From Bispira polyomma (taxonomy: Eukaryota), in assembly GCA_965649765.1 (NCBI GenBank), contig OZ287757.1, positions 31,558,001 through 31,622,000 of the forward strand: a stretch of 64,000 bases of DNA, in the 5' to 3' direction. Shown here in pieces: positions 16,390 through 61,834 of this stretch (position 1 is the first letter of the stretch; the number at the start of each line of letters is the position of its first letter). The notes under the pieces are model-generated. The model was not told the DNA's origin. It saw nothing but the letters and a program-made list of their open reading frames with translations, and searched no databases. Both the position numbers and the translations under genes were made by a program.

Positions 16390-18596
16390 GAACACGGACT
16401 ACCAGCAGACATAACTGCTACTCACCTTCAGTCCACTTCTGATGTCGTTATTGACCATTGTGTGCTGACAGGAAGTAGTGATTTAATCAGTAGCATTAAT
16501 AAGAGAATTTTGTAAGAACGACAGTATTAAGAATGATTTCATCAAAAAATTTAGTTGTCAACTTAATGAGTCAATTAATCAACTGAATTATGGTGATGCC
16601 AGAAAGACATCTCAAGTATTACCTAACAGTAGTTCCCTTAAAGACTTATGTAGGCAAGAATAGCCAGTTTGATGGAACATTATGTATTCTTTTTGGTGTG
16701 ATAATAATGGTCAAAAACCATCAGCTGTTTTTCATACAGTAGACATTTACGTTAGTACCAGTAATTTTAAGCCTGATTGTCCAACTTATTGTTATATTGT
16801 TTGTCATGATGAGTCATGTATTTCAGGTATATACACATGGACTTATTGTCATAATATGTGGTACCTACAACAAACCCCATATACACTGGATCATATATGG
16901 CCAATATCCTATGTGAACACCAGTTGTGTCATAATACTACACTATACTTAATCACATCAGTCAAAAAATCGTGCAAAGCATAATGTGGCATATACGCAAA
17001 CAAAAATTGGACAAACTTTTATTATACAGCAAATCAAATCTTCAACGACAGAGCTTTTAGTCTGGAGTTTCGAAATATAAACAAGTCAGGATTCCTCTTA
17101 AGAGTAACCTCAAAGTTGTAAATTGGAAGAAATATTTGACAGATTATCCTGACAACATCATATTACAATATATTGAATTTGGTTTTCCAATTTCACTTTA
17201 TGATAGACAGTTCAAGATGTTAAGAACCAGTACTCTTTTCCAGAAGCTGTCGACAAATATTTTGTCACAGAACTCGAACGAGGCACCCTAGTGGGTCCAG
17301 CTACTTCTGACCTTCACCCTGACATACATTGCTCTCGACTTCTGACTGTACTTAAAAACATTGACAAGCGCCGTCTTATAAGGCATTCGGTAAATGACTG
17401 CACTGTTAAAACACAGTTCGACCCAATCGACTTCACTTTGAAATTACCCACCATTGACCAAATAACTTACAAAATTATGGACATAGGACCTAAGGCGACC
17501 TTAGCAAAAGTGGACGTAGCTCACACATTTCGTTACCCAAGAATAGACCCTTATTATTGTTTGAAGCTGGGTTATATATGGAACAAGCAGTGCTTTCTTG
17601 ACTTAAGTCTGACTTTTGGTCTCACCCATGGTACTGCTGCTTTTATGATGACCTCATACTGTGTCACTTTCATAATAAAACAAAAGAGTTACACAGTTAT
17701 GAACTACATAGAGGACTTTATATTCATAGAGCACGAAGATAAGGCCACCTTAGCTGTCAAAACTTTACAGCAAATACTGACAGACCTAGGTCTTCCTATT
17801 AACCCCAGTAAGCTAGTACCTCCCAGCAAGCAAGTTACATGTATGGGCATTGTTATCGACATTGACAATATAGACGAAGACAAGCTAAATTTAATTCAAA
17901 ATACTTGCCTTGATTTCAAATACTTTGAGAAAGTTTGAAAACAAAAGTACCAGTTGTTGCTCGGTAAGCTACTCTATATACATCGCTGTATCAAACCATC
18001 TTGGATTTTCATGAACCGAATGCTTGCCTTACTACGCCAGTCTACAAGTCGTAAAACCATCATTCTAAATAGTGAATTTCATAAAGACTCACCGTGGTTT
18101 CTGCTCTTTCGGAAGTAGTTCAATGGTACTTGCAAGTACAATTATCTGAACAAAGATAATGACATCTCCTTACAGGTTGACGCCTGCTTATCAGGCATAG
18201 GTGGCATCTCAGACGACAAAGTGTTTAAGGTTGCTCTCCCTTCATTCATGACTGACAATTTTTCCATTGTACATTTTGAAATGGTCAGTGTTTTAATAGC
18301 ATTAAAGCTATGTGGCCATGAATGACAACATTGCTGTGGTGGCCGTTGTGCAGTCTTCTAAAACCAGAGTTGATTATCAGGGGCTATGCCTCCGAAACAT
18401 ATGGCAAATCTGTACTACCAAAAAATTAACTTAAATATCAGTCATATATCAGGTAAAGATAATATAATTGCAGATGTGTTATCTCGGTGGTATGAATCAG
18501 TACATCATGCTGATTATGTAAAAAATCTTTTTTTCAGGCAACTTCATCATGTATGACGTTTCAATTGACTTATTTACCCTTGACAGTTATATATAA
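16390..18596 (+). pseudogene. E1 pol (RT + RNase H), disrupted
   Basis: KVDVAHTFR, LTFGLTHG, NYIEDF, KLVPP, then DAC..GIGG, DNIAVV, IADVLSRW. Confidence 0.88.
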
Positions 18597-27398: not shown

Positions 27399-30300
27399 GA
27401 CAGGAGACGACTGACAGTTACAGGCAGTGTTGGTATTATTAGCAATTTTGAAAGGCATAATGAGATTAGTGATGTTTCCAGGAGTAGTGACTTAAGTTTA
27501 GAAAGTAAATGTGTTCTCAGAAAGACGAATAATGAAATTTCTAGTTTAGATAAATTAAAGAAATTATATCTTGAGACTTCTGAATTTTCCAGGAGGAGTG
27601 ACTATATGTTGGATTGTAAATGTGAGTTTGGTAAGATAAACAATGAAATTTTTACTTTAGATAAGTTAATCACATTATCTACTGATGTGATAGACGAACA
27701 TTTTTCATCTGGTAATACAGATATAAGTACCAGTGAAATAATTCCAGATAACAATCAGAATAGTACTAAGTGTAATGTTTCAACCACTGGAATGTTTAAT
27801 TCTGTGCCACAACGTGCTCATTCTAACGTTTTTTCAGATTCCAAAATTGAGGACCTTATGACTTATATTTTCTAACGAAATCATAATGTCCATGAATTTT
27901 CAGAAAGTACTTTAAACAAGTTCATTACAGATAATAAGTTTCAGAGAAACCATAATGTTCTTAAATTTGCAGAATTTTCTCGGAATGAGCCCATTGTGAG
28001 TAATTTGGAAGATGTACTATATACTCACAATAATGTTAGCACCAATTTAGATATGACATATGCAGATGTGTACTTAAGTGAGAACACTAGTACTCATCAA
28101 AATATTTATTATGTCATTGACAAACTTAACCCAAATATAAAAGGTGTGTTTCAAGGTCAAATTTCAGGTGGCAACCTTGTATTAAAGGATGCCTGTATCA
28201 CATTGGCAGACATATGGCCAGTGAATTTTGTTACTTCGGCAATGATATACATTGTCAATGTTAACAAAAACATTGAGAAATTTCGTCTTAACAGTAGTGC
28301 TAACAAAAAAGTGAAGAAATCACATACTAAACTGAAAGTACACAGTACTCAATACTATACAGATATGATTGATAAGATGTGTAACATAATAGATAATGAT
28401 ACTTCACATACAGAAATTGCTACTACAGGTCGTTGTACTTTGTACACAAAAAAATTAGAAACAACAGAACAGTTTCAACGTCCTGATACAGATGCACACA
28501 AACAGACAATACAATGTCAAAAATACTCATTAAGTCAGAAACTATGTTCCTTTCAAGGTCAAGTGTCAGAATCCACAACATGTCATTATACTTCTTCTAC
28601 ATTGGCTGTACTTGCACAAGAATTGGATAGGGCTGAACTGACTCTAGACTGTACTAGTGATAAGGAAGACTACATTAAGTCTATGGATGACAGTAGTAGA
28701 CAGTATGGTTTTATACCTACATATAAGTCAAATTTTTCTTTTATAGGACTAGACAGAGAACCTGTGGACATTAAGGATTTCCAGACTTTAACTCGAGTAA
28801 GTGACATAGTTAAGGCTACAGGAAAACTACAGAGAAGCTCGTGTCCCTCTAGCTTCAGGACTTAACTTAAAACCTTGGAAAATTTACTTAAAGGACTATG
28901 ACGATAAGATTGTTTTGGATTATCTAGAATTTGGTTTTCCTATTTATTTACATGAGAGACAGTTATTAGATGTTAAGCATGTCGACAATCATTTTTTTGC
29001 TAATGCCTGAGTATGTTTGACAGGTATTTTGTAGAAGAAACAGACAGGGGCAATATTATTACTGTATCTAAAAGTGACTTAACAGAAGAATTCCATTGTT
29101 CTCCTTTATTGACAGTTCCTAAAGGGGAGGACCAAAGACGTTTAATCTTAATCTTTCTTACCCAGCAGGACTATCTGTCAATGACTTTACTTATAAGCAG
29201 AAATATGACAACTTTGGTTTTATTTTAAAATTACCAACTATAGACCAAATAGTTGAAGACATTAAGAGTATAGGTAAAGATGCCAGACTAGCAAAGGTGG
29301 ACGTTTCGCACGCTTTCCGAAATTTGAGAGTCAATCCTTATGATAGCTTGAAATTAGGTTACAAATGGGGACATAAACACTACGTAGATTTAACTTGGGC
29401 GTTCGGTCTCACCCATGGCACGTCTGTGTTTATGCGCATTTCGGATACAGTTACCTATATCTTAAAACAAAACGGATATAAAGTATACAACTACATCGAC
29501 AACTTTATTATCGTTGAAACTAAAGTTAAGGCCACCTTAGCATACAAATTATTACAAAAAGTGCTAAATGATATCGGTTTGCCTATTAATCAGAAAAAAC
29601 TAGTTCCCCCTGATACCAGAGTAACATGCATGGGTATCACTATTGATATAGAAAAGGGCACTTTAAGTATAGACGAAGAGAAATTACTGTCCATCCATAA
29701 AGTTTGCTTAGAATTCAGAAAAAGCTAAGAAAAACAAGTACCAGTCGTTGCTTGGTAAACTTTTATATATTCATAAATGCATTAAACCATCTAGAATTTT
29801 TCTAAACAGGATGCTTTAACTTTTAAGAGATTCAACCAGTTCCAAACACGTAATTTTGAATGATGAGTTTAAGAAGGACTTAAACTGGTTCAATAAATTT
29901 TTGATTAGTTTCAACGGAAGTATGACTTATGAATACAAACACTCTTTTAACAATATTTCCTTACAAGTCGATGCTTGCTTACAAGGAATAGGGGGAATTT
30001 CACAGGCAAACGCTTTCACAGCACCAATACCAGATTGGATGAGAGAAGACTATTCGATTGTGCATTTCGAAATGCTAAGCGTACTTGTAGCTTTTCGGTT
30101 ATGGGCTGATAAATGTCGTGATTCACGGATTCGCATACAGTCAGACAACATTGCTGTAGTATCTGTTATAAAGTCGTCAAAAACTAAAGATTCAATGTTG
30201 GCAACTTGTTTGAGAAATTTATGGTTAATTTGTGCAAATTATAATATTGATATTAAGATTGATAATATTGCTGGTAAAAACAATATTTTTGCAGATACCT

Positions 30301-50200: not shown

Positions 50201-52839
50201 ATGTTTAGGCACCACTTACACAACGGACATAGAAAGTTATTATGCCCCATCCGAATAACGGAATGACAACCAAGGTCTAATGACACACAAATTGCAAAGG
50301 AGGAATTTGTAGTTATGTAAATGAGACTGGGACATTTTGGTTAGATGTACCTTTGAAAAGCAGTAGAAATATTGCAAGCTACAAATCATTGCATCGTTTC
50401 CAAAGGATTCAGGATTTTGTTGAAAATGGGGTTGCCTTTTAAATAATTTCAGGCTAAGGATTGTCAGTTGAATGACATTATCTCAACTGACCTTTAAATT
50501 CTTAATAATAAGGCACATTGTTAAAATTTTCAGGAAATTATTTACAGTATTAAGCATGTACATTATTCTTTTCCTTGATTTTGTCTGGGTGTGTTAAGAC
50601 TGATTAAATATATTCATTAAGTCATACCTTTCATCACTGAACTGTGGTAAGTAGAAATTATACAACCATATAATAGATGTATGCATATATACCTTTAATG
50701 ACAGATAATAAAAAATCAAATATTTATTATACTTGTGAATGGGTAAATCAATTTCATGTCACTGGTAATGATGACAAGAATACTAGAGAAAATGTTATAA
50801 TGGAACCTTTTTTAGTCTGCTCTATAAAGAAGTCTTATTACAAAAGGTATTTGTTATTATATTTACTTCTTTTTCTTCAATAATTTGTTTTGTGTTGAGG
50901 TCAACTTCTAGTTCCCCATTGCGAAAAATACACCTGTTTGTTGTGGGGTTTCATCATTGCCCTTTGCACAACTCATACCAGTTACTCATATTATGTTTCT
51001 GTCATTTAAGCCATTTTTAGACATTTGTAAAAACTACAGTCCTTTGATCAAAGGCAGTAAATGACATAATATCCAAGCTGCAGCTATATTTAGATCCGCC
51101 AAGGCATTTTTAGATCAAAGAACAGGTTGTATACCCTATTGATAATATTCATGGGATGTGTTTAGTAATGATCCTATTTCCTACTATTTGCTGTATTATT
51201 TTATATAAAAACTTTAATGTTATTGTATGGAAAAATGTTTTTCTCTATTCGATAATAGTATTAACCTATTTTCACTGTAATTGTGAGTTGTGTGGATCTT
51301 ATTTTACAAATAATTGCTGTAATATAAAGACAAATCACGAAATTTTATTTTGCATTTACCAGGGCATATATGTGAATAATAACTATTGGCCAATGATTCT
51401 GTGAATGCTGAAATGCAAACTTTGCTGAAGAAATTATATATACCTTTTTATCATTACATTAGATTTACGATTTTACCATTAAATTTGATTTACCATCTTT
51501 ACTATCATATTGTTTGATTGACCACAGGAATCATTCTTGTTATGAAATGGATACAACATTTCTGTCCAGCTTGTTGTACTTGTCGCCTGCGTGCTAGACT
51601 TGTTGGTTGCTTTTGACACTACTGATCATCATGCATTTAAATTTTTTCAGAAAATTCTTGCCAGATGTTAAGAATGAATGGCTTCAAATAAGCTCACATT
51701 GAAAGACTGAGTTCATTCTGTTTGGCTCCGGTAATTGTGTCAAACTGTTGGACTTGTTTTACTGTCCATATTCTTAGAAAATTTACTAACACCCTGCTTC
51801 AGGACTGCTCCTCTAAAGCTATCGGCTAGTTACCAGTTAATGACTTTTTTCCATTTCAATCATATTTTTTTCAAACTGCCAAACATTTAACATAGAATTT
51901 GATATAAAGAATCCTAAGCCTTGAAATTAGTTTAATACTAATATAAAAACATAAATTTTTCCCTTATTATAAATTTATGAAGGAATAATATTTTTGGGTT
52001 TATCACAATATATACTTTACAAATAAAATACACAAAGATAAGCTACCACACACAAAAATATTGCAAAGCCTATAAATATTGCCTAAGATTAACAAAATAC
52101 TATTTAATAATCCAAAAACCCATAGCTAGATCAATCAATATAAGCTATGATCAGTTTGAGATCATTCCCATCAGCTTTTATGGAACAAAATGCTGAAAGA
52201 TGAGGATAAAATACATATTTTTTTAAATTCACCATTTTTTGTAGATATTGAGAGTGAACATATCTGGATAAAATTTTCAACTATTTATACATCGACCAAA
52301 TGTATCCATAAAAAGCACAGAGAAAAGATCGTATTTTTGTCCAAGGCTATTGCAGCTTGTAGGAAAAAGAAGTAATTAAGTTAACAGAGTAAAAGGTGGC
52401 CAAGATTCCTAGCGCTTTATAGGGCTTTACCGGATATTTTTATCACTAATAACAAAAGTCATATTTTTGCTCAGTTTTGCAATTATAAGTGCAATTTGCT
52501 TGCTGGTTCCCATTCAACATAGGATGAGATTTGAATCACATGTGAAATGGTCCACAAAAGGGTTTTGGCCAAAAAAAGTGCAACTAGAACCATGCTCTCA
52601 CATTCTTAAATGGGTCATCAAGAAGAAATGGTAGTCTTAACAGGTTAAATAACTTGTATTCTTAAATGATTGTCTTTAAGAGCTATGTCATTGATATGTT
52701 CCTGAAACTAGACATTTTTATACAAATTAAGCTCACATTTGACGTTTATCTACATGTTGTATTTCTGTCGATGGCTTACGTCTGTGATCTGATACATTCA
52801 TGACTTGAAGCAGTCTGAATGTTAGTGGATCATCAGCAT

Positions 52840-53624
52840 AGTATCAAAGTATCAAAGGCTGCTGACAGATCCAGCAGTACTAAGGCAGTAGGCATACCTT
52901 TGGATAAAGATGTATGAACATCATTTTTGATGCAGAGAAGTGCGGTCTCAGTAGCATGACCACTTTTGTACGCTGACTGATACTTATTGGACAGATTGCT
53001 GATGTCAACATGTTGTTTGATCTGTAAGGCAACCGTGCATTCTACCAACTTAGAGATATAGCAAAGGCCTGAGACAGGACGGTAAGTTTTCAAGTCAGCC
53101 TTTGGAAGAGAAGGTTTTTTTATTAAAGGAGTGACAATGGCCCTTTTAAAATCATCTGGAAAGACGCCATTTACCAACGAGAGGTTGATAAGTTTTGTGA
53201 TTGAGGGCAATAAAATGTCAATACATTCCTTAACAAGGAATGTGGGCCACGGATCTAGCAAGCAAGATTTTACTGGTGATGCCAGTATAATATTCCTGAC
53301 TTCATCAACAGTTACTGTGGAGAAACAGTTGAAGATGGTTGGTGGAGCTGTTGGTAAAGGGGCATTTGGGGCAGCTAATGTAAAACCGTCACGGATTCTG
53401 GTAATTTTATCAGTGAAAAAAGTACTAAAAATGTTTACCAGTGATTTTCTATTACAATTTTCGGGTAGTATAGTCTGTTTTTTACGGTGGTGGGTGCTAT
53501 TTAGTTTTTGCCAAAGTTTCTTCGGGTCGCCCTCGCTTTGTGATATCATGTTGGCATAGTAGACACGTTTTGAGTAATTTATAGTGTTGTTGCACCGGGT
53601 GATCCATTGGCGTAGTCTAGAACT
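52840..53624 (-). pseudogene. Inverted L2 ORF2 segment (linker and first RT motifs)
   Basis: ORF 52833..53549 is open upstream to ~53624. Confidence 0.9.
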
Positions 53625-54751
53625 ATACTATTGATCACAAAGTTTTTCTTGAGTGCCTATCGTCTTGGTTCAGTATCAGCGGTATGGCGCTTAAGTGGTT
53701 CACGGCATATTTGTCTGATAGATTCCAATCAGTCAAAATTGGTAATATCTTATCCGACCCAACATGGTTAAAATTTGGTGTTCCCCAAGGTTCCGTCCTG
53801 GGTCCCATTTTGTTTTCCATGTACACCACTCCACTCAGCAAGATTATTGCTGCATACAAAAACATAAACTTTCACTTCTATGCTGATGATACCCAACTGT
53901 ACATCCACCTTACACCTGACTCTGCCCAGGCAGCTTTCACTTCCTTACAGAACTGCCTTGTTGATGTACAACACTGGATGGCAGCAAATAAACTCAAGCT
54001 GAACCCTGAGAAGACTGAGTTTATTTTGTTTGGCTCCAAGTCACAGTGGGAAAAATTGTCCAGCTGTTTTCCACTTGACATTCTTGGCAGCAGGTTTTTT
54101 CCAGCTGGCAAAGTACGAAACCTGGGTGTGGTGTTCGACTCTGAATTCTCCTTCTCTAACCATGTCGCATCGGTGTGTAGATCATGTTTTGTTGGCCTCC
54201 GTGATTTCAGGCGGATTCAACACTATCTTTCCAAATCCACTGCAATCACTGTTGCCAATGCTTTGGTCAGCAGCAGGCTTGATTACTGCAACTTTCTGTT
54301 CCGTTCCTTATCTCGTAGTGATCTCAGACGCCTTCAGAATATCCAATACTCATTGGCACATATTGTGACCAAAACTTCTACATTTTCCCACATTACTCCT
54401 GCACTCAAGTCACTGCACTGGCTCCCAATAAAATATCATGTTGCTTTCAAAACAGCAACAATAATATATAAATTTCTAAATTCTGGATTACCCACTTATT
54501 TTAGCCCCCATCTATCCAAATATACATGCTCAGTCTGGACAAGGCGCAGTAACCCTGATAAATTATACCTTAACATTCCCACTTTCGACCCTCGCATCCA
54601 CAAATCCAAAGTTCAGTTCAATCACTGCCTAGCTCATGATGGCCCCCTCATTTGGAACAGCCTACCTGATCATGTTCACCTGGCTCAAACTTTCTCCTTT
54701 TTAAGGAGTAAGCTGAAGGCCTATCTTTTTGAACAGGCTTTTCCACCTTAG
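53625..54751 (+). pseudogene. L2 ORF2 C-terminal half (RT core)
   Basis: QGSVLGP, YADD, KLNPEKTE, SRLDYCN, LHWLP. Confidence 0.92.
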
Positions 54752-55203
54752 CAGTCGCAACCATTTACGGTAGTCTCACTGGTTACGACTTCCATCCACC
54801 CACTATTTTTGATTTTCGATTAACGTTTTGGGTTTGTTGCGTCTTAGAATTTGTTGTACAAAGATTAAGCGCTATAAAAGTACGACTAGATTACATTAAA
54901 ATAGATTAGCATCACATTTTGCAGGGAAACATAGACAAGTCTGTTAATACACAACAGTGAGGTATATATAGACAAATGTAAAAACCATGATTAAATGTCA
55001 ATAAGATTTAAATGACATATTTAGCTGATTTAGTGGCTATACTATGAACAACTGGCACATGTATCTTAATTGTCCATTTTAATAAACAACTATGGTTTAT
55101 TAAAGCATTGTTGTTACACAGTCTCTTAATAATGGTCCTTTTAGTCAGATTACAAAGTGCAGCAAGTTAACCAATTGTTTAAAAGAACACTCCGGCTGGG
55201 TAG

Positions 55204-55347
55204 CCAATAAAGAAATTGTGGTGGGCTGACGCCCGTGCGACAGCCCCCCTCAGTTCTGGTGGCAGGTCACTGGGAGGCTAATTAAGCCACCTGGGGTCAC
55301 GGGGGCAAGTATAAAAGGGATTGCCGCCAACAGGCGCCATCATTAGT
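55204..55347 (+). promoter_or_regulatory. E3 internal Pol II promoter
   Basis: CCAAT at 55204, TATAAAA at 55310-55316, Inr-like TCATT about 30 nt downstream, in a GC-rich patch. Confidence 0.65.
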
Positions 55348-55450
55348 GAAAAACAGTTCTTAGATACAAGTGTTTTTACAATTGGGGTTTTTACTACCCA
55401 GGGCTTTTACTACCCAGATATTGTTTTACATTTTAGTTGAATGTGTAGTC

Positions 55451-56446
55451 ATGCCTAAGGAATACCCGTGTAGTGTATGTTCTGGTCGGCACGGACGTCC
55501 AGTTGGGAAGAAATGTAAATTTAATCCGTTGGACAGCGTCGCTGATGAGGTGGCTGCCGTTGATCCTGCTGTGCCTGCTGTTTCTGATTCCGTATCTAGT
55601 TTGATACTTCAACAACTGGTTGTAATGAATGAGAAGATGGACAGCATGGATCAACGAGTACAAGCTACTGAGGCGGCGCTGTGTAAACCCAGCGCCCAGG
55701 CATGTAACACAGTTTCTAAATCTGTATCTAATGTCCCTAGTGTTAGTGAACCAGTCATTGAGGCCGTTGTGCCCTCCCTAGATTACCTGCGTTCAAATTC
55801 CAGCTTACAAAGTCAGGTAGACCAGCGTTTGCTGCAACTGCAACAACTCCACGATTTAACGGGAGGTAAACTGAAATCCCAAAGAGGTGGCGCGGAAGCT
55901 CCCGTTAAACGTCATGTTGATTGGCCACAAAATTTTGTCTTGTCGGGTGTAAAAAAGGTTAGGCCCACTTACGATGACCTTACTTTGGTTCAGTTCGTTT
56001 CCGGCTTTGTTCGCTGTACGCAAGAGCAAAAAGACTCCTCGGTCCGCGAGGCTATGTTGGAATATCTGGCATGCCTGATGGATGACGCCCATGATTTTTC
56101 GTGGGACGCCGCCAAAGCCGCTCATGCCATTTTATTGACCAACATGGAAATGGACCGATTGAACTGGACAGATGTCGAAAAGGTCGACCGGATACGGCGC
56201 GCTCATGCACAGCGTCATGTAACGTCCTCAGCTAGTGGGTCTGGCCTTTCTAAAAGCAATATTGGCAGTAGGGGTAAAACCTCGGTGAAAACAGTGGGAG
56301 TAAACTGTCGATTCTTTCAGGAAGGCACGTGCAAATTTGATGCCAGCCATCGCACTTCTGGACAGTGGTTCAAACACTGCTGTGAGAGCTGTGGTGGCCC
56401 GCATCAAACCAAATTGTGCTTCAAAAAATCGGCCGCAAAAAACTAA
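55451..56446 (+). CDS. E3 gag-like protein
   Basis: ATG 55451 MPKEYPCSVCSGRHGRPVGKKC, coiled coil, WPQ..YDDL, C-terminal CRFFQ..C..H..HCCESC..H..C fingers. Confidence 0.9.
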   Translation: MPKEYPCSVCSGRHGRPVGKKCKFNPLDSVADEVAAVDPAVPAVSDSVSSLILQQLVVMNEKMDSMDQRVQATEAALCKPSAQACNTVSKSVSNVPSVSEPVIEAVVPSLDYLRSNSSLQSQVDQRLLQLQQLHDLTGGKLKSQRGGAEAPVKRHVDWPQNFVLSGVKKVRPTYDDLTLVQFVSGFVRCTQEQKDSSVREAMLEYLACLMDDAHDFSWDAAKAAHAILLTNMEMDRLNWTDVEKVDRIRRAHAQRHVTSSASGSGLSKSNIGSRGKTSVKTVGVNCRFFQEGTCKFDASHRTSGQWFKHCCESCGGPHQTKLCFKKSAAKN

Positions 56447-56471
56447 GGGGCCACTGCAGTAGTGCAGTGGC
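56437..56471 (+). promoter_or_regulatory. -1 programmed ribosomal frameshift signal
   Basis: A AAA AAC heptamer in the gag frame, 6-nt spacer, perfect 9-bp hairpin gccactgca-gtag-tgcagtggc. pol is in the -1 frame. Confidence 0.85.
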
Positions 56472-59022
56472 TGCTAAGAAACTTGTACGTGAAACCTGCT
56501 CCAGAGTTGTATATAATTCTACTTTTAGGGATTTTAAACTGTTTGATCATGTGTGTTGTAAAGATAATATGTATACTGGACCCCGACTTAACAGGTCATA
56601 CCGGGACGTGTTGCAACAGGGCCTTGTGGTTCCTGGTATCGAGATTGGTGAAAACCGGGAAATGGGGACAGTTAACCCTATGTCTGTTAATAGAGCCCCA
56701 CAAGGTAGTGTGTTCCATAATACCGCATTACACAAGTTGTCGGGAGGGAGGCATTCACCCGTGGAAGTGTTAAACACACCAGCTGACAGGCGACGTGAGA
56801 AAACAATTCACCAAAAGGTGTTAAGAAAAACACCTTTGGGTGGTGTGAAAACTTCTGTGAATAGGCGGCTCGGTAACCATGCAAACCGGGTGTTACAAAA
56901 TCAACCAATTGTGTCCAAAACAATTAAACTAAGTGATGGCCAAGGCGGGCCTAGACGGCTGGGTTCTCTGAGTGTGAAAACAATTGGCGCGGGTACCACT
57001 TCAAGTAATGCTAACAATAGTGGGTTTCGCCTTCCCCTGCATAACCGGTTTAGTGGCCTAGACATTCCTGATGTAGAATTTCCTGAATCTGTTGACACGT
57101 TCGGTAAGGTCGATTTCACACCTATTCCACTTCCTGACTCGAGTGACACGTTGGGTAGGGTCGATTGCACACCTATTCCACCACCTGACAAGAGATCTAA
57201 CCCGTGTGATGACAAGTATGTACTGGACCTCTCAGGAGGCCTTGATAAGAGACAGCGCTTAAATGCAGCTAAAGATAATGTGACCTACAAGTTGTGGGAT
57301 ATACAGAATAGTGGGAAGTATGGGTTCATACCAACTAGTTCCTGGGGTAACCCAGTGATTGATAGCTCCAATAACCAATTGATCACAGATGTGTTTACAC
57401 TACATAAGGCCCTTAAATTGGATGGGAGACCAAATTATAAGGGTTTACAAGTCCCCATACATACCCAACTGACGGTCCCTGCCTGGGATAAGTATTTAGC
57501 GAATTATTGGGATTGGGAACTCCCCTTACTGATAAAATTCGGATTTCCTCTTGACTGTAATGAAGAACATGACTTCAAGTCTGACTTGAACAATCATGCT
57601 TCAGCCAAGCAATATCCTGAGCATGTGAATCATTACCTGAAAGAAGAATGTTCTATGGGTGCTATGTATGGACCTTTCGTCCATCCCCCAATTGATGATG
57701 TGCACACATCTCCATTTATGACTAGAGACAAATCAAGCTCGGTTAACCGACGAGTCATAATAGATCTGAGTTGGCCCATCGGTCATTCGGTTAATGCAGC
57801 TGTGTCATCAAATTCGTATTTGGGCAAGGAATTTGTACTTACTTACCCTTCTATAGATGACATAACCCAACAAGTGTTGCAAAACGGTAGGGGCTCCTTG
57901 CTATTTAAAGCGGATATTAGTCGCGCATTCCGTCATGTGACCATAGACCCCAGAGACATCAATCGTCTGGGCTTATACTGGGACGGCTACTATCTCGACG
58001 GCTCGTTGCCCTTTGGCTACCGACACGGTTCAGTGATTTTTCAGAGAATTTCTGACAGTATAAGGTATATCATGGAAGGTGAAGGTCATAAAATCACCAA
58101 CTATATCGACGATCTCTTATGTTCTTCTGTTCCCTCAAAAATCTATGAAACGTACCACCGACTGCAGGCCCTTTTGGCCGAGTTGGGTTTGACTCTTAGC
58201 AAGAAGAAGCTGGTTCCTCCAGCCACCCGGGTAACCTGCCTAGGCATAGTTATAGATACAGTTCGGTTCACTACATCCATACCAGAGGACAAACTAGCTC
58301 AGGTTCAAAAAATATGTGCCAATTGGAGTGATAAAAAGCAGTGTACTAAGCGGGAGCTCCAATGTTTATTGGGTTCTTTGCTGTATATTTCCAAATGCGT
58401 GAAGTACTCACGATTTTTTTTGAATCGGATGTTGCAACTCCTCCGAAGCAATCACCACAAAACAAGTATCAAAATTAACCCTGACTTCAAAAAGGACCTT
58501 AACTGGTTCATTCAGTTTCTCCATACGTACAATGGGGTGACATTTTTTCATCATGCCCCCATCACTGACATTGTAGAGTTGGATGCCTGCCTAACAGGCA
58601 TGGGAGGAGTGTATGGCAAACAAGTATATTACCTTCCCATTCCTGCTGCTATGCACAAACATAATATTGCTTCATTGGAGATGCTCAACATTCATGTGGC
58701 TTTGAAGTTGTGGGGCAAATACTGGCAGGGACGTAGACTGTTAATTAAATGTGATAACCAGGCTGTTGTGAGTGTCCTTACGCATGGTAGAACTAGAGAT
58801 AGCGAATTAGCCCTGTACTCGCGGAACATATTCATGCTGGCTAGCCAGCTCGATGTAGACATACAGGTCGTCCATATTCTAGGAAATAACAATACCACCG
58901 CTGACCTCTTGTCTCGTTGGACAAATTCAAGTAAGGATAATGTTCTCTTACAGGAGCTGGTGGCCGATGTCCAATGGTGTGCCGTGACAGAGGACCACTT
59001 ACTGCTCAATCACCACATTTAG
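56437..59022 (+). CDS. E3 pol: reverse transcriptase + RNase H (entered by frameshift)
   Basis: RVIIDLSWP, KADISRAFR, LPFG, YIDD, LDAC..GMGG, E, DN, ADLLSRW. Uninterrupted frame. Confidence 0.95.
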   Translation, partial: KKLRGHCSSAVAAKKLVRETCSRVVYNSTFRDFKLFDHVCCKDNMYTGPRLNRSYRDVLQQGLVVPGIEIGENREMGTVNPMSVNRAPQGSVFHNTALHKLSGGRHSPVEVLNTPADRRREKTIHQKVLRKTPLGGVKTSVNRRLGNHANRVLQNQPIVSKTIKLSDGQGGPRRLGSLSVKTIGAGTTSSNANNSGFRLPLHNRFSGLDIPDVEFPESVDTFGKVDFTPIPLPDSSDTLGRVDCTPIPPPDKRSNPCDDKYVLDLSGGLDKRQRLNAAKDNVTYKLWDIQNSGKYGFIPTSSWGNPVIDSSNNQLITDVFTLHKALKLDGRPNYKGLQVPIHTQLTVPAWDKYLANYWDWELPLLIKFGFPLDCNEEHDFKSDLNNHASAKQYPEHVNHYLKEECSMGAMYGPFVHPPIDDVHTSPFMTRDKSSSVNRRVIIDLSWPIGHSVNAAVSSNSYLGKEFVLTYPSIDDITQQVLQNGRGSLLFKADISRAFRHVTIDPRDINRLGLYWDGYYLDGSLPFGYRHGSVIFQRISDSIRYIMEGEGHKITNYIDDLLCSSVPSKIYETYHRLQALLAELGLTLSKKKLVPPATRVTCLGIVIDTVRFTTSIPEDKLAQVQKICANWSDKKQCTKRELQCLLGSLLYISKCVKYSRFFLNRMLQLLRSNHHKTSIKINPDFKKDLNWFIQFLHTYNGVTFFHHAPITDIVELDACLTGMGGVYGKQVYYLPIPAAMHKHNIASLEMLNIHVALKLWGKYWQGRRLLIKCDNQAVVSVLTHGRTRDSELALYSRNIFMLASQLDVDIQVVHILGNNNTTADLLSRWTNSSKDNVLLQELVADVQWCAVTEDHLLLNHHI

Positions 59023-59101
59023 ATATTCCTTGTCCGGTTGCATGCTATTATGTTCTTCAGCCTTTACAAATGTTACTTTGTCTGCTTGTGTTGTGTTATA
59101 G

Positions 59102-60090
59102 CTAGAACTCCCCTGCAGCAGTTATTATATCAAAATGCAACGAAGAAGCTTCACTTGGCCTTCTGCAGGTCCACAGACAGATCTTATACTGCGATGTATA
59201 GGGTGTACCAAGCTTATGCATCCTTCTCGGATCTGCCTTGTGACCAGGTGACAGCTATTGATCTTCTTGCTTTTTTAGAATTTTTACACTTTAACTCTGT
59301 AAAACCTGCCCATATGGCTAATTATTTATCTGCTATTAAAGCTAAGAGTATTGTATACAATGTGCCCATTCTTGCCTTCAGTGACCCTCGCTTGGCTTAC
59401 TATCAAAAGTCTGTCCAATTGGCTGCCCCCTTAAATGTTCAGCTCAAAAAGATTATAGACATACCTCTTCTGACGAGTATTGTCAATGTCTCCAACACCA
59501 CTTACATGGGTCCTATCTTTACAGCTGTGTATTTGGTCAGCTACTTTTCCTTCCTCAGGTTATCTAATTTAGTACCCCATTCCTGTCTTCAGTTTTCTGC
59601 TTTGAGACATCTATCCAGGGCTGATGTCATGTTTCACAGGGACAAAGCTGTCCTTTTGGTAAAATGGTCCAAAACGATGCAGAGCAATAATCAGATTAGA
59701 CTTATTACTATCCCACGCTTGCTGGGTTCTCCTCTTTGCCCTGTGGGGTCACTGCAGGCAATTATGGCTCTTACTCCGTCTGAACCTAATTCACCCTTAT
59801 TTCAATTGAAAGACAAATCTCACTGGGTTCCGCTTACTGACACCCGTGTCCGCAGGCATTTCAAAACGATACTTGCCAGGCTCCAGTTGCAGGATTCTGG
59901 CCTCACACTGCACGCTTTCCGACGTTCGGGTGCCACTTTTGCCTTTAACCATAACGTCAGCATTCAGAACATCCAAAAACATGGCACTTGGACGTCGGAT
60001 TGCGTGTGGAGGTATGTTACCGACTCAGTGGATGCGGGACAGCAGGTATCGGACACATTTCGCCTTCATCTTGCTACTTCTTCTTCCTAG
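59102..60090 (+). CDS. E3 tyrosine recombinase (start at the predicted splice acceptor)
   Basis: FLRLSNL, KWSKT, HAFRRSGA, HGTW, WRY. Confidence 0.93.
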
Positions 60091-60404
60091 TTCCTACGTG
60101 CTGGGTTTGGGTGTTTCTACTCAAAATTTAGTCTATATTTCATATTCTAGATAATTATGTAATTTTTGCTTTACATGTAGTCACATGCTAGTCATGTATA
60201 GTGTCATATAGAATTTAAATTACTATTTCACTTGCTACTCATTTCATGTTACAACTATAAAGTTAACTTCACAGAGTAGTATTTTATTTCCTAGTAATTG
60301 TATGCTACAACTAGTAATTCAACTTCATGAAATAACTGTTTCATTAAAAGGTAATACAATCTGTAATTAACTGAAAAATTACAACTTAACTCTTCTTCTA
60401 TACA

Positions 60405-60675
60405 TTTTAGGGTCACCTCAATTTGTAATTCCCTTATGGGTTAAAAATTTAGTATACTAACCTGTATTTAAGGTGATCTTTAGCCCCCCTTTTGTAGTAT
60501 AAAATTTAAGATCATCTCCTTTTTAAGTACCCTACGGGCTTTGTCATTTCACTTATTTAAACTGTCTTGGGGTGACCTTATCTTGTTCTTTGAGGTTATG
60601 TAAAATATTTTATTACTTTCACTCAAATTAGTATGACTTAAAGTTACAAATTACCGTGACCTTAAGTCACGTTGT
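60405..60675 (+). ncRNA. Predicted structured RNA domain in the E3 3' UTR
   Basis: 14-bp and 10-bp helices complete with G-U pairs, plus hairpin cgtgac-cttaa-gtcacg. Confidence 0.55.
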
Positions 60676-60700
60676 ATATAGTAGTTTAACATAGACTAAC

Positions 60701-60706
60701 AATAAA
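60701..60706 (+). terminator. E3 poly(A) signal
   Basis: AATAAA followed by a pyrimidine-rich tract, 70 nt before the element end. E1, E2 and E4 have equivalents. Confidence 0.6.
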
Positions 60707-61532
60707 ATATTTTACCGCATTCTGCTTACTTACTATCTTGCTTTCTTGACCTCTGACCCTTTGGCCTGTCACGCGGGAAATGAGACTACTACGGATAAGC
60801 ATAATTCAGTTTTGCAGCTGTCAGATCTATAGATGTGTATTACTGTTATCCTATATCCAGAGCCCCCACTAATGGATCTGTCTAGATGGTTGTATCACTC
60901 TGTCATAGTGTCTTAGACGAAGTAATGTACTTGATATGACTTATTTTTAATCACACTACATGATTACCATGAAATACAGATCAGGTCCTGTACCTAGCAT
61001 ATTGATCATGGATATGGCCTACTTGTTCTGATTCACATATATTTTAATCATTGTATTGCTGTATTTAATATATATAAATGTTCAAATTCTTACTTGACAG
61101 CCCAGTCAATCAGCAAGTGATACTAAAGAGGATATTTATAACCACAAGGTAATTGTGACTGACATACAATCATGAGAAATCAGTTTTGGCACAAAACATA
61201 CTTACTTCAAAAAACTAATATTTTCTAAACATCAGTTACCCTAAACCATTCTTAGCCAGCTAATAGCATACTTAATATGGCCCTAATATGGAGTCAATGT
61301 AAACTGTTATTTCGTTATGTCATTTATTCTCTGGAAAATTAGTCAAATCTGGAAGAGAGTAAGGAGTGATGTGAAAAGAGCAACACTTACAAACTAAATT
61401 AGTAACTCAATTGGGTGCCACAGTGCCCTTGCGTGACCTTGGAGATTTATTGGAAACACAATGGCAAGAATTCTACTTGGGACAGTTAATTTATTCTTCT
61501 TTGGTCAGCTCTACGATATTTACAAACTTAGA

Positions 61533-61834
61533 AGACTAAGGCCACCTTTACATGAGGGTGAACTTAAATTTAAGTATCACCATCAATTTAGTTGCAGTTT
61601 TAATGTTACCAGAATTGAGTATACGAAACTCAAAAGTTTAAGGTCTTAACTTAGATGCCTTGAGAGTAAGGGGCAACCTTAAAGTCATTTTACTTTAATT
61701 TAAGGTTGCCTTAAACCGAGTATGATAATTTAGAGGAAGGTCATCTTAGTTAGGATGCGGTTTATATATGAGGTAACCTTAATCAGATGTTATTTATGGA
61801 AGTAAGTTTTGTGAAGTAAAGGTGGCCTCAGCCT
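61533..61834 (-). ncRNA. Predicted multibranch structured RNA in the E4 3' UTR
   Basis: 19-bp closing helix enclosing about five hairpins. Confidence 0.6.

Follow-up and report, generated by a model that had tools for sequence, protein, structure and literature searches.

Downstream of the recombinase gene of a retrotransposon in the genome of Bispira polyomma lies a cluster of short, imperfectly repeated palindromes, and the question it raises is whether such a cluster works as folded RNA or as double-stranded DNA. The element, which we call E3, lies in a window of 64,000 nucleotides, the whole stretch of DNA analysed here (GCA_965649765.1, contig OZ287757.1, positions 31,558,001 to 31,622,000). 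The initial annotation described the cluster as a 3' UTR domain that folds as sense-strand RNA. We find that the motif array exists and that it can form one long sense stem, but RNA structure as its main role is not supported. On the sequence evidence assembled below the array is most likely, at a probability of about 0.55, a cluster of double-stranded DNA sites for a putative dimeric protein, probably one encoded by the host.

Structure and classification of the E3 element

E3 (55219 to 60782, + strand; ends set from the flanks of other copies, genes from open reading frames and Pfam) is a young Ngaro-like tyrosine-recombinase retrotransposon of the form A1-ORFs-B1, this copy being without the A2-C-B2 tail. 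The A repeat (55219 to 55381, +) contains a TATA-like box read from the sequence (55310-55316, +). It is followed on the same strand by a gag-like frame (55451 to 56446, first in-frame ATG to stop), which has no Pfam match and is named by position only, by a reverse transcriptase (RT)/RNase H frame lying in the -1 frame relative to gag (56386 to 59022, stop to stop; RVT_1, E 3.5e-08; RVT_3, E 1.7e-04), and by a tyrosine recombinase (YR) frame (59023 to 60090, stop to stop) whose Phage_integrase match, at E 0.0028, is below the curated cut-off. The recombinase has 512 homologues, and several among the best 120 carry PF00589. A programmed frameshift from gag into the -1 frame of RT is predicted at 56437-56471 (+), where a slippery heptamer, A-AAA-AAC, lies just 5' of the gag stop and is followed by a perfect 9-bp hairpin at 56450-56471.

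The split direct repeat B (675 bp; 60108 to 60782, +) contains the array, so the label of 3' UTR is too simple; in other copies a second B, 99% identical, is found about 1.4 kb downstream. B also includes an AATAAA (60701-60706, +) and a conserved ACCGCATT (60714-60721, +), which is 3' of the poly(A) signal and is complementary to the B|A junction (locus L007, 2186-2197) with one G-U pair. In the second of the two clades described below, a CCCAA after AATAAA matches a TTGGG near the element end. On the minus strand at 60749-60761, near the end of B, there is a DR1-like pair of half-sites, GGGTCA-G-AGGTCA, that is partly kept in clade 1.

When the genome (1.04 Gb, 75 contigs) was searched with 60091-60782, at least 40 scored matches among 367 candidates were 98-100% identical. 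In 14 of the 25 near-identical copies attached to a recombinase, B1 is followed by a direct repeat of A and some 570 unique bases, after which a second B is in view in nearly all cases; the remaining 11, E3 included, end at B1. Lone A-C-B units (locus L030) and a triple-B copy also exist (loci L004, L025, L026, L030), and these forms, together with the copies ending at B1, fit a circle resolved at two junctions. A permuted form with B upstream of A1 occurred in none of the 26 loci read out from 30 taken. RT/RNase H precedes the recombinase on the same strand as in Ngaro elements, and the split repeats A1-ORFs-B1-A2-B2 are present in the near-identical copies, E3 itself stopping at B1. The predicted layout is that of Ngaro or PAT elements, and the lack of a methyltransferase match in Pfam at E 0.01, in a frame that ends 33 residues past the RNase H match, points to Ngaro rather than PAT. 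Upstream of E3, a LINE-type RT fragment at 52833-54751 is made of two opposite orientations joining at about 53621, and a 95% copy of 54012-54912 flanks another locus (L023).

A 13-bp palindrome is conserved across recombinase families

The arms of the annotated stems had been taken for variants of a single motif, and this is borne out: across 213 copies from 42 families the consensus is a 13-bp palindrome, TAAGGYNRCCTTA, which contains AAGGTCA and whose halves are equally conserved (81-92% per position) around a free centre. In E3 the array consists of a C-centred motif 1 (60408 to 60420), a G-centred motif 2 (60469 to 60481), a decayed C-centred copy, motif 2' (60507 to 60519), that corresponds by alignment to the motif placed first in sister families, a G-centred motif 3 (60568 to 60580), and motif 4 together with another half-site 10 bp further on (60652 to 60671), which has a decayed twin at 60630-60645. 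The array lies 110-375 bp from the recombining end of B. Alignment with the sister families identifies 60507-60580 as the ancestral pair and 60408-60481 as an added unit that looks duplicated. A decayed element, E4, whose recombinase is about 35% identical, carries an array of its own on the minus strand (61533 to 61834).

We collected 126 regions 3' of a recombinase, 86 of them by protein similarity alone (E3 and E4 included) and 40 by the pattern of a motif pair. At least two copies of the motif within three mismatches were present in 125 of the 126, and in 85 of the 86 that had been chosen by recombinase alone. The regions yield the 42 families (28 recombinase-selected, 14 pattern-selected), with 5.07 copies per domain against 0.33 in shuffled sequence. 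The families fall into two clades about 30% identical in recombinase, between which the motif is kept while the spacers diverge until they cannot be aligned. The tree behind this division was built by a quick method from 41 of the 42 families using copies from this genome only, and all of the comparative evidence comes from this one genome. Intervals between copies range from 28 to 82 bp, the spacing of the main pair shows no helical phasing, and local duplications are common in B. At five loci (L309, L320, L322, L130 and L163) GGGCA/TGCCC extensions turn the first and last motifs into an inverted repeat of 18 bp around as much as 300-370 nt, and satellite-like arrays of the motif occur with periods of about 29 bp (L162) and about 28 bp (L313).

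Scanning metagenome contigs for the motif pattern gave 64 loci, all of them without similarity to YR or RT, and viral contigs gave no pattern locus and no YR relative. Several GC-rich metagenome contigs (L214, L222-L225, L236-L238 and others) carry repeats with a 21-bp period, built on a similar palindrome and without a nearby YR or RT, that are probably unrelated bacterial repeats.

The motif is retained within RT codons of E1-type elements

Two further elements of the window, E1 and E2, had been described as lacking the domain. The 3' array is indeed absent from both, but the motif is present inside their RT frames, at 17491 to 17503 (site 1) and 17740 to 17752 (site 2) in E1 and at 29527 to 29539 in E2. 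Among 50 relatives of E1 (65-100% identity) site 1 retains a match within two mismatches in 49 and site 2 does so in 48, and a plausible 3' array was found in just one of the 20 whose 3' end could be read. One E1-type locus (L392) has both internal sites and a small 3' array and is a possible intermediate state.

Of 23 lineages, seven were left for a synonymous-site test once those more than 90% identical had been dropped. In these seven, all six motif codons with a conserved residue and a synonymous choice are fixed, against a background of 10 of 51 among two-fold, 4 of 34 among four-fold and 2 of 20 among six-fold codons. The centre of the palindrome is the only codon position that varies. 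The two sites pair better in the antisense than in the sense strand in 7 of 7 lineages. E3's own RT is without the sites, and no match within two mismatches was seen in the RT stretch of 20 array-bearing families, a stretch that covers roughly site 1 only and was anchored in nine of them.

Limited support for the array as an RNA structure

As had been annotated, the outer arms of the E3 array (60408-60421 and 60567-60580) are complementary at 14 of 14 positions with two G-U pairs, and the mean pair probability of this helix is 0.96 in the sense strand and 0.65 in the antisense strand, or 0.97 versus 0.06 in a longer context. The inner helix (60471-60480 with 60508-60517) is complementary at 10 of 10 positions with one G-U pair, as proposed, but its pair probability in the ensemble is just 0.26. 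The short hairpin at 60655-60671 is present as a 6-bp inverted repeat, but it forms with a probability near zero and is replaced by a helix spanning 60631-60668. It had also been proposed that deviations from the motif are wobble-compatible only on the coding strand; this is true of the three wobbles that were named, but in the inner helix the adjoining pair (60470 with 60518) reads A-C in the sense orientation, and the asymmetry fails as a general rule, the two kinds of transition numbering 73:73 over the 213 copies of the 42 families. Folding of 60400-60680 on both strands gave z-scores of -3.23 for sense (equalled by 1 of 200 shuffles) and -1.98 for antisense (by 10 of 200), and E4, which has the array in common with E3, gave -6.62 and -4.76. 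Over the 42 families, at 14 shuffles each, the strand difference disappears (mean z -3.61 sense versus -3.72 antisense, p 0.46, sense lower in 18). A scan of eight loci with Rfam 15 gave nothing above threshold and one sub-threshold match to mir-32 (E 0.18).

Among 59 distinct B sequences of the E3 family the common alleles of the arms leave the nested stems intact or strengthen them, in most cases through A>G changes, and the short hairpin is broken in 24. Three sequencing runs, which consist of contigs, repeat this allele variation and no more. Simulations produced the nested pattern of E3 by chance in 4-9% of cases; the pattern is specific to E3, since 60408-60481 is an added unit. Many copies of the motif are unpaired or mispaired. 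A mainly RNA role for the array is not supported, because folding shows no strand preference across the families, the core is invariant and does not covary, so many copies pair poorly or not at all, and the motif recurs under synonymous constraint inside RT, where its two copies pair better on the antisense strand.

One convergent pair shows signs of a probable RNA stem

The arrangement in which a G-centred copy comes after a C-centred one occurs in 35 of the 42 families, and in 21 of the 28 that were not selected by that pattern. The order is fixed (235/229 against 14/12 for the reverse), and this main pair is better kept than other copies (0.6 versus 1.9 changes per motif). Its non-canonical pairs are G-T in 20 cases and A-C in 6 (p 0.009), and a hand count in the 21 unbiased families gives 15:5. 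The pair has an A>G bias, at 18:6 against 43:50 elsewhere (p 0.013), and 17 of the 18 wobble-type changes in the pair are A>G. The pair next inward from the core shows complementarity in 21 of 35 families, where 11.7 are expected, and in 5 of 31 when later G-centred copies are used. Covariation at this inner pair is seen in clade 1 (12 of 18 versus 6.3, p 0.003, by a permutation that ignores the tree, G-C having arisen on about three branches); clade 2 shows none (8 of 15 versus 9.0). In some families the stem is extended by 5-10 family-specific pairs, so that perfect stems reach 18 pairs in L130, 24 in both L174 and L182, and 19 in E4, where the outer helix joins arms 61816-61834 and 61533-61551. 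RNAalifold on 13 clade-1 families gave -23.3 for sense and -15.8 for antisense, and only 1 of 30 pairs in the consensus fold is doubly changed, the core being invariant. The native sense duplex of the main pair is more stable than the antisense duplex in 25 of 35 families; the strand gain relative to partners from other families is not significant (p 0.24).

Broader counts do not show this bias clearly. Best-matched motif pairs show no bias (31 G-T, 30 A-C), helices found without reference to the motif are at 38:22 (p 0.12), and single-motif mini-hairpins give no signal (52 G-T, 46 A-C; 7 compensated versus 6.2). Short tandem half-site hairpins stand at 23:4 under a rule set after the data were seen and at 42:39 under the earlier count. 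Little is lost when the motifs of an element are exchanged with one another: 25 of 300 permutations reach the observed score. Pairing of the first with the last motif was considered as a general rule and rejected: native partners do no better than those of other families (23 of 42, p 0.66), though such pairing is clear in a few families.

Copies of the motif elsewhere in the genome

The exact 13-mer occurs 2596+2550 times against 18+18 for a control (about 140-fold), and the C variant 1634+1606 times against 15+14 (about 110-fold). Of 20 sites sampled by hand spacing from the start of one contig, and so not at random, 11 lie in arrays of four or more, one lies in RT, two match other DNA that we had collected and six match nothing collected. 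Two of those six were searched and both are single-copy, by a DNA search that can miss repeats; lone perfect copies apparently lie in unique DNA.

Discussion

The array is real and conserved, and apparently undescribed. In the openly accessible papers searched, no account of the motif in these elements was found, nor was a definition of cis-acting signals for Ngaro-type elements found in the literature examined. As described in the accessible text of PMC9210276, PMC8547959 and PMC4157794, Ngaro-like elements (order DIRS) have gag-like, RT/RNase H and YR frames, A1-ORFs-B1-A2-B2 repeats and lone AB units. E3 resembles them in its three frames on one strand, its split repeats, its lone units and the lack of a methyltransferase match; it is unlike them in that some 570 bp of unique DNA separates A2 from B2 in its family and in that 11 of 25 copies end at B1. 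The accessible portions of those three papers hold no mention of a motif array or RNA stem in the B repeat. The VIPER/SIRE elements of Trypanosoma cruzi, in the part of PMC6681497 available, offer a likeness to the lone A2-unique-B2 unit of the E3 family (locus L030), for that unit also occurs alone there; they differ in belonging to a kinetoplastid group, and no palindrome array appears in the same portion of that paper.

The copies within RT are, on this sequence comparison, the deciding result in favour of a DNA site over an RNA structure. That the motif is kept in RT codons where sense pairing is poor, and that lone perfect copies exist, indicate that the motif itself is the selected unit. 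Because a symmetric site is kept without a pairing partner, independently of position, and unchanged while the proteins around it diverge to 30% identity, we infer that its reader would be a dimeric DNA-binding protein, most simply one of the host. The U3 regions of LTR elements carry arrays of transcription-factor sites, among them the nuclear-receptor half-sites TAAGGTCA and TNAAGGTCA, and the E3 array is like these in its variable copy number, local duplication, free spacers and position upstream of a TATA box. An AGGTCA-type half-site with a 5' extension, TAAGGTCA, is present in the C/G-centred motif. Unlike U3 or receptor sites, however, the two half-sites overlap by 3 bp inside the 13-mer with both halves kept, copies also occur in coding DNA, and the half-sites do not have the standard DR, IR or ER spacing; we know of no such spacing with a 3-bp overlap. 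Candidate readers are nuclear receptors, for TAAGGTCA or TNAAGGTCA, and proteins that recognise RFX half-sites, neither of which accounts for both halves of the motif, and no known factor has been matched to it.

A protein bound at the cluster would drive or license transcription of the element. At the B1-A2 junction B immediately precedes the A repeat with its TATA-like box, so that B and A together may resemble a split LTR in which B acts as the enhancer, and the same adjacency would arise in a circular intermediate, if one exists. Any two copies of a palindromic site can be expected to fold back on each other in a transcript, and the convergent pair with the C centre first and the G centre second probably does form a stem that has shaped it. 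From the bias that it shows we consider it quite probable that the main pair forms in the transcript, whether through selection or as a footprint of editing. The fixed order, better retention, A>G bias, clade-1 covariation, stem extensions and RNAalifold result of that pair all count against a DNA site, as do the missing helical phasing, the want of a matching factor and the hand spacing of the 20-site sample.

The same signals are what would be expected if the array were first of all a sense-strand RNA structure whose stems, formed towards the 3' end of the genomic RNA, load RT or Gag for packaging, priming or dimerisation. The eel LINE UnaL2 reportedly has a 3' stem-loop, and the E3 stem, like this and the hairpin proposed for DIRS-1, is near the RNA 3' end and is carried by non-coding partner units; it is unlike them in being invariant in sequence, multi-copy and kept where pairing is poor. 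The Ngaro group would need such a signal since no primer is known, and for DIRS-1, in the accessible part of PMC7192593, the primer is unknown and a 3' hairpin has been proposed. The pair's G-T excess, its more stable sense duplex, the post hoc tandem hairpins, the stem-preserving alleles of the E3 family and the 19-bp helix of E4 agree with this proposal. We nevertheless find it doubtful, for the core hardly ever changes on both sides, clade 2 lacks covariation, the looser tests and the cross-family strand gain are flat, E3's nesting can arise by chance, Rfam offers no match, and the RT-internal and lone copies go unexplained.

Two other proposals bear on parts of the same evidence. Phage integrases use arm sites, and the palindromes could by analogy be accessory sites for the element's own recombinase, or for a Gag-recombinase fusion, read either on circular DNA or on single-stranded cDNA that has folded. 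The proximity of the array to the recombining end of B would suit this, as would the preference of the RT-internal pairs for the cDNA strand and the single-stranded cDNA intermediates of DIRS-1 (accessible part of PMC7192593). It is improbable when one 13-mer serves recombinases only about 30% identical, when the sites of E1-type elements are some 2 kb upstream of the recombinase end, when the ends of the elements coincide with the B|A junction and not with the motif, and when lone copies sit in unique DNA. Least probable of all, in our estimate, is that mutation alone, through A-to-I editing of the fold-back RNA or template-switch perfection of inverted repeats during reverse transcription, left the strand bias and the stem extensions as footprints on repeats without a current function: the A>G excess among wobble-type changes and the frequency of local duplication in B speak for such processes, but fixed synonymous RT codons and retention over two clades are left unexplained. 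A footprint process may, even so, explain the strand bias of what is otherwise a set of DNA sites.

If the array is a cluster of DNA sites, a larger proposal can be framed, although we hold it only tentatively and think it unlikely as a whole. The entire radiation of these recombinase retrotransposons would rely on one undescribed host DNA-binding protein, its site being supplied either by an end-repeat array or by RT codons, and in the array-bearing clades two inverted copies would have become a stem in the RNA, one that shuts the 3' domain and takes the place of the RT-loading or priming signal so far missing from Ngaro elements.

An array of cis-acting sites in the end repeat of a retrotransposon is of a known kind; the copies within RT are what is new here. 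The motif offers an exact target of 13 bp for mutation in reporters and for use as bait; it has been kept among recombinases about 30% identical, and it can shift between a terminal repeat and coding DNA. Its two variants together exceed 8,000 exact copies in the genome, some of them dispersed by a family that has dozens of 98-100% identical members, and it may also be a host regulatory motif distributed by these elements.
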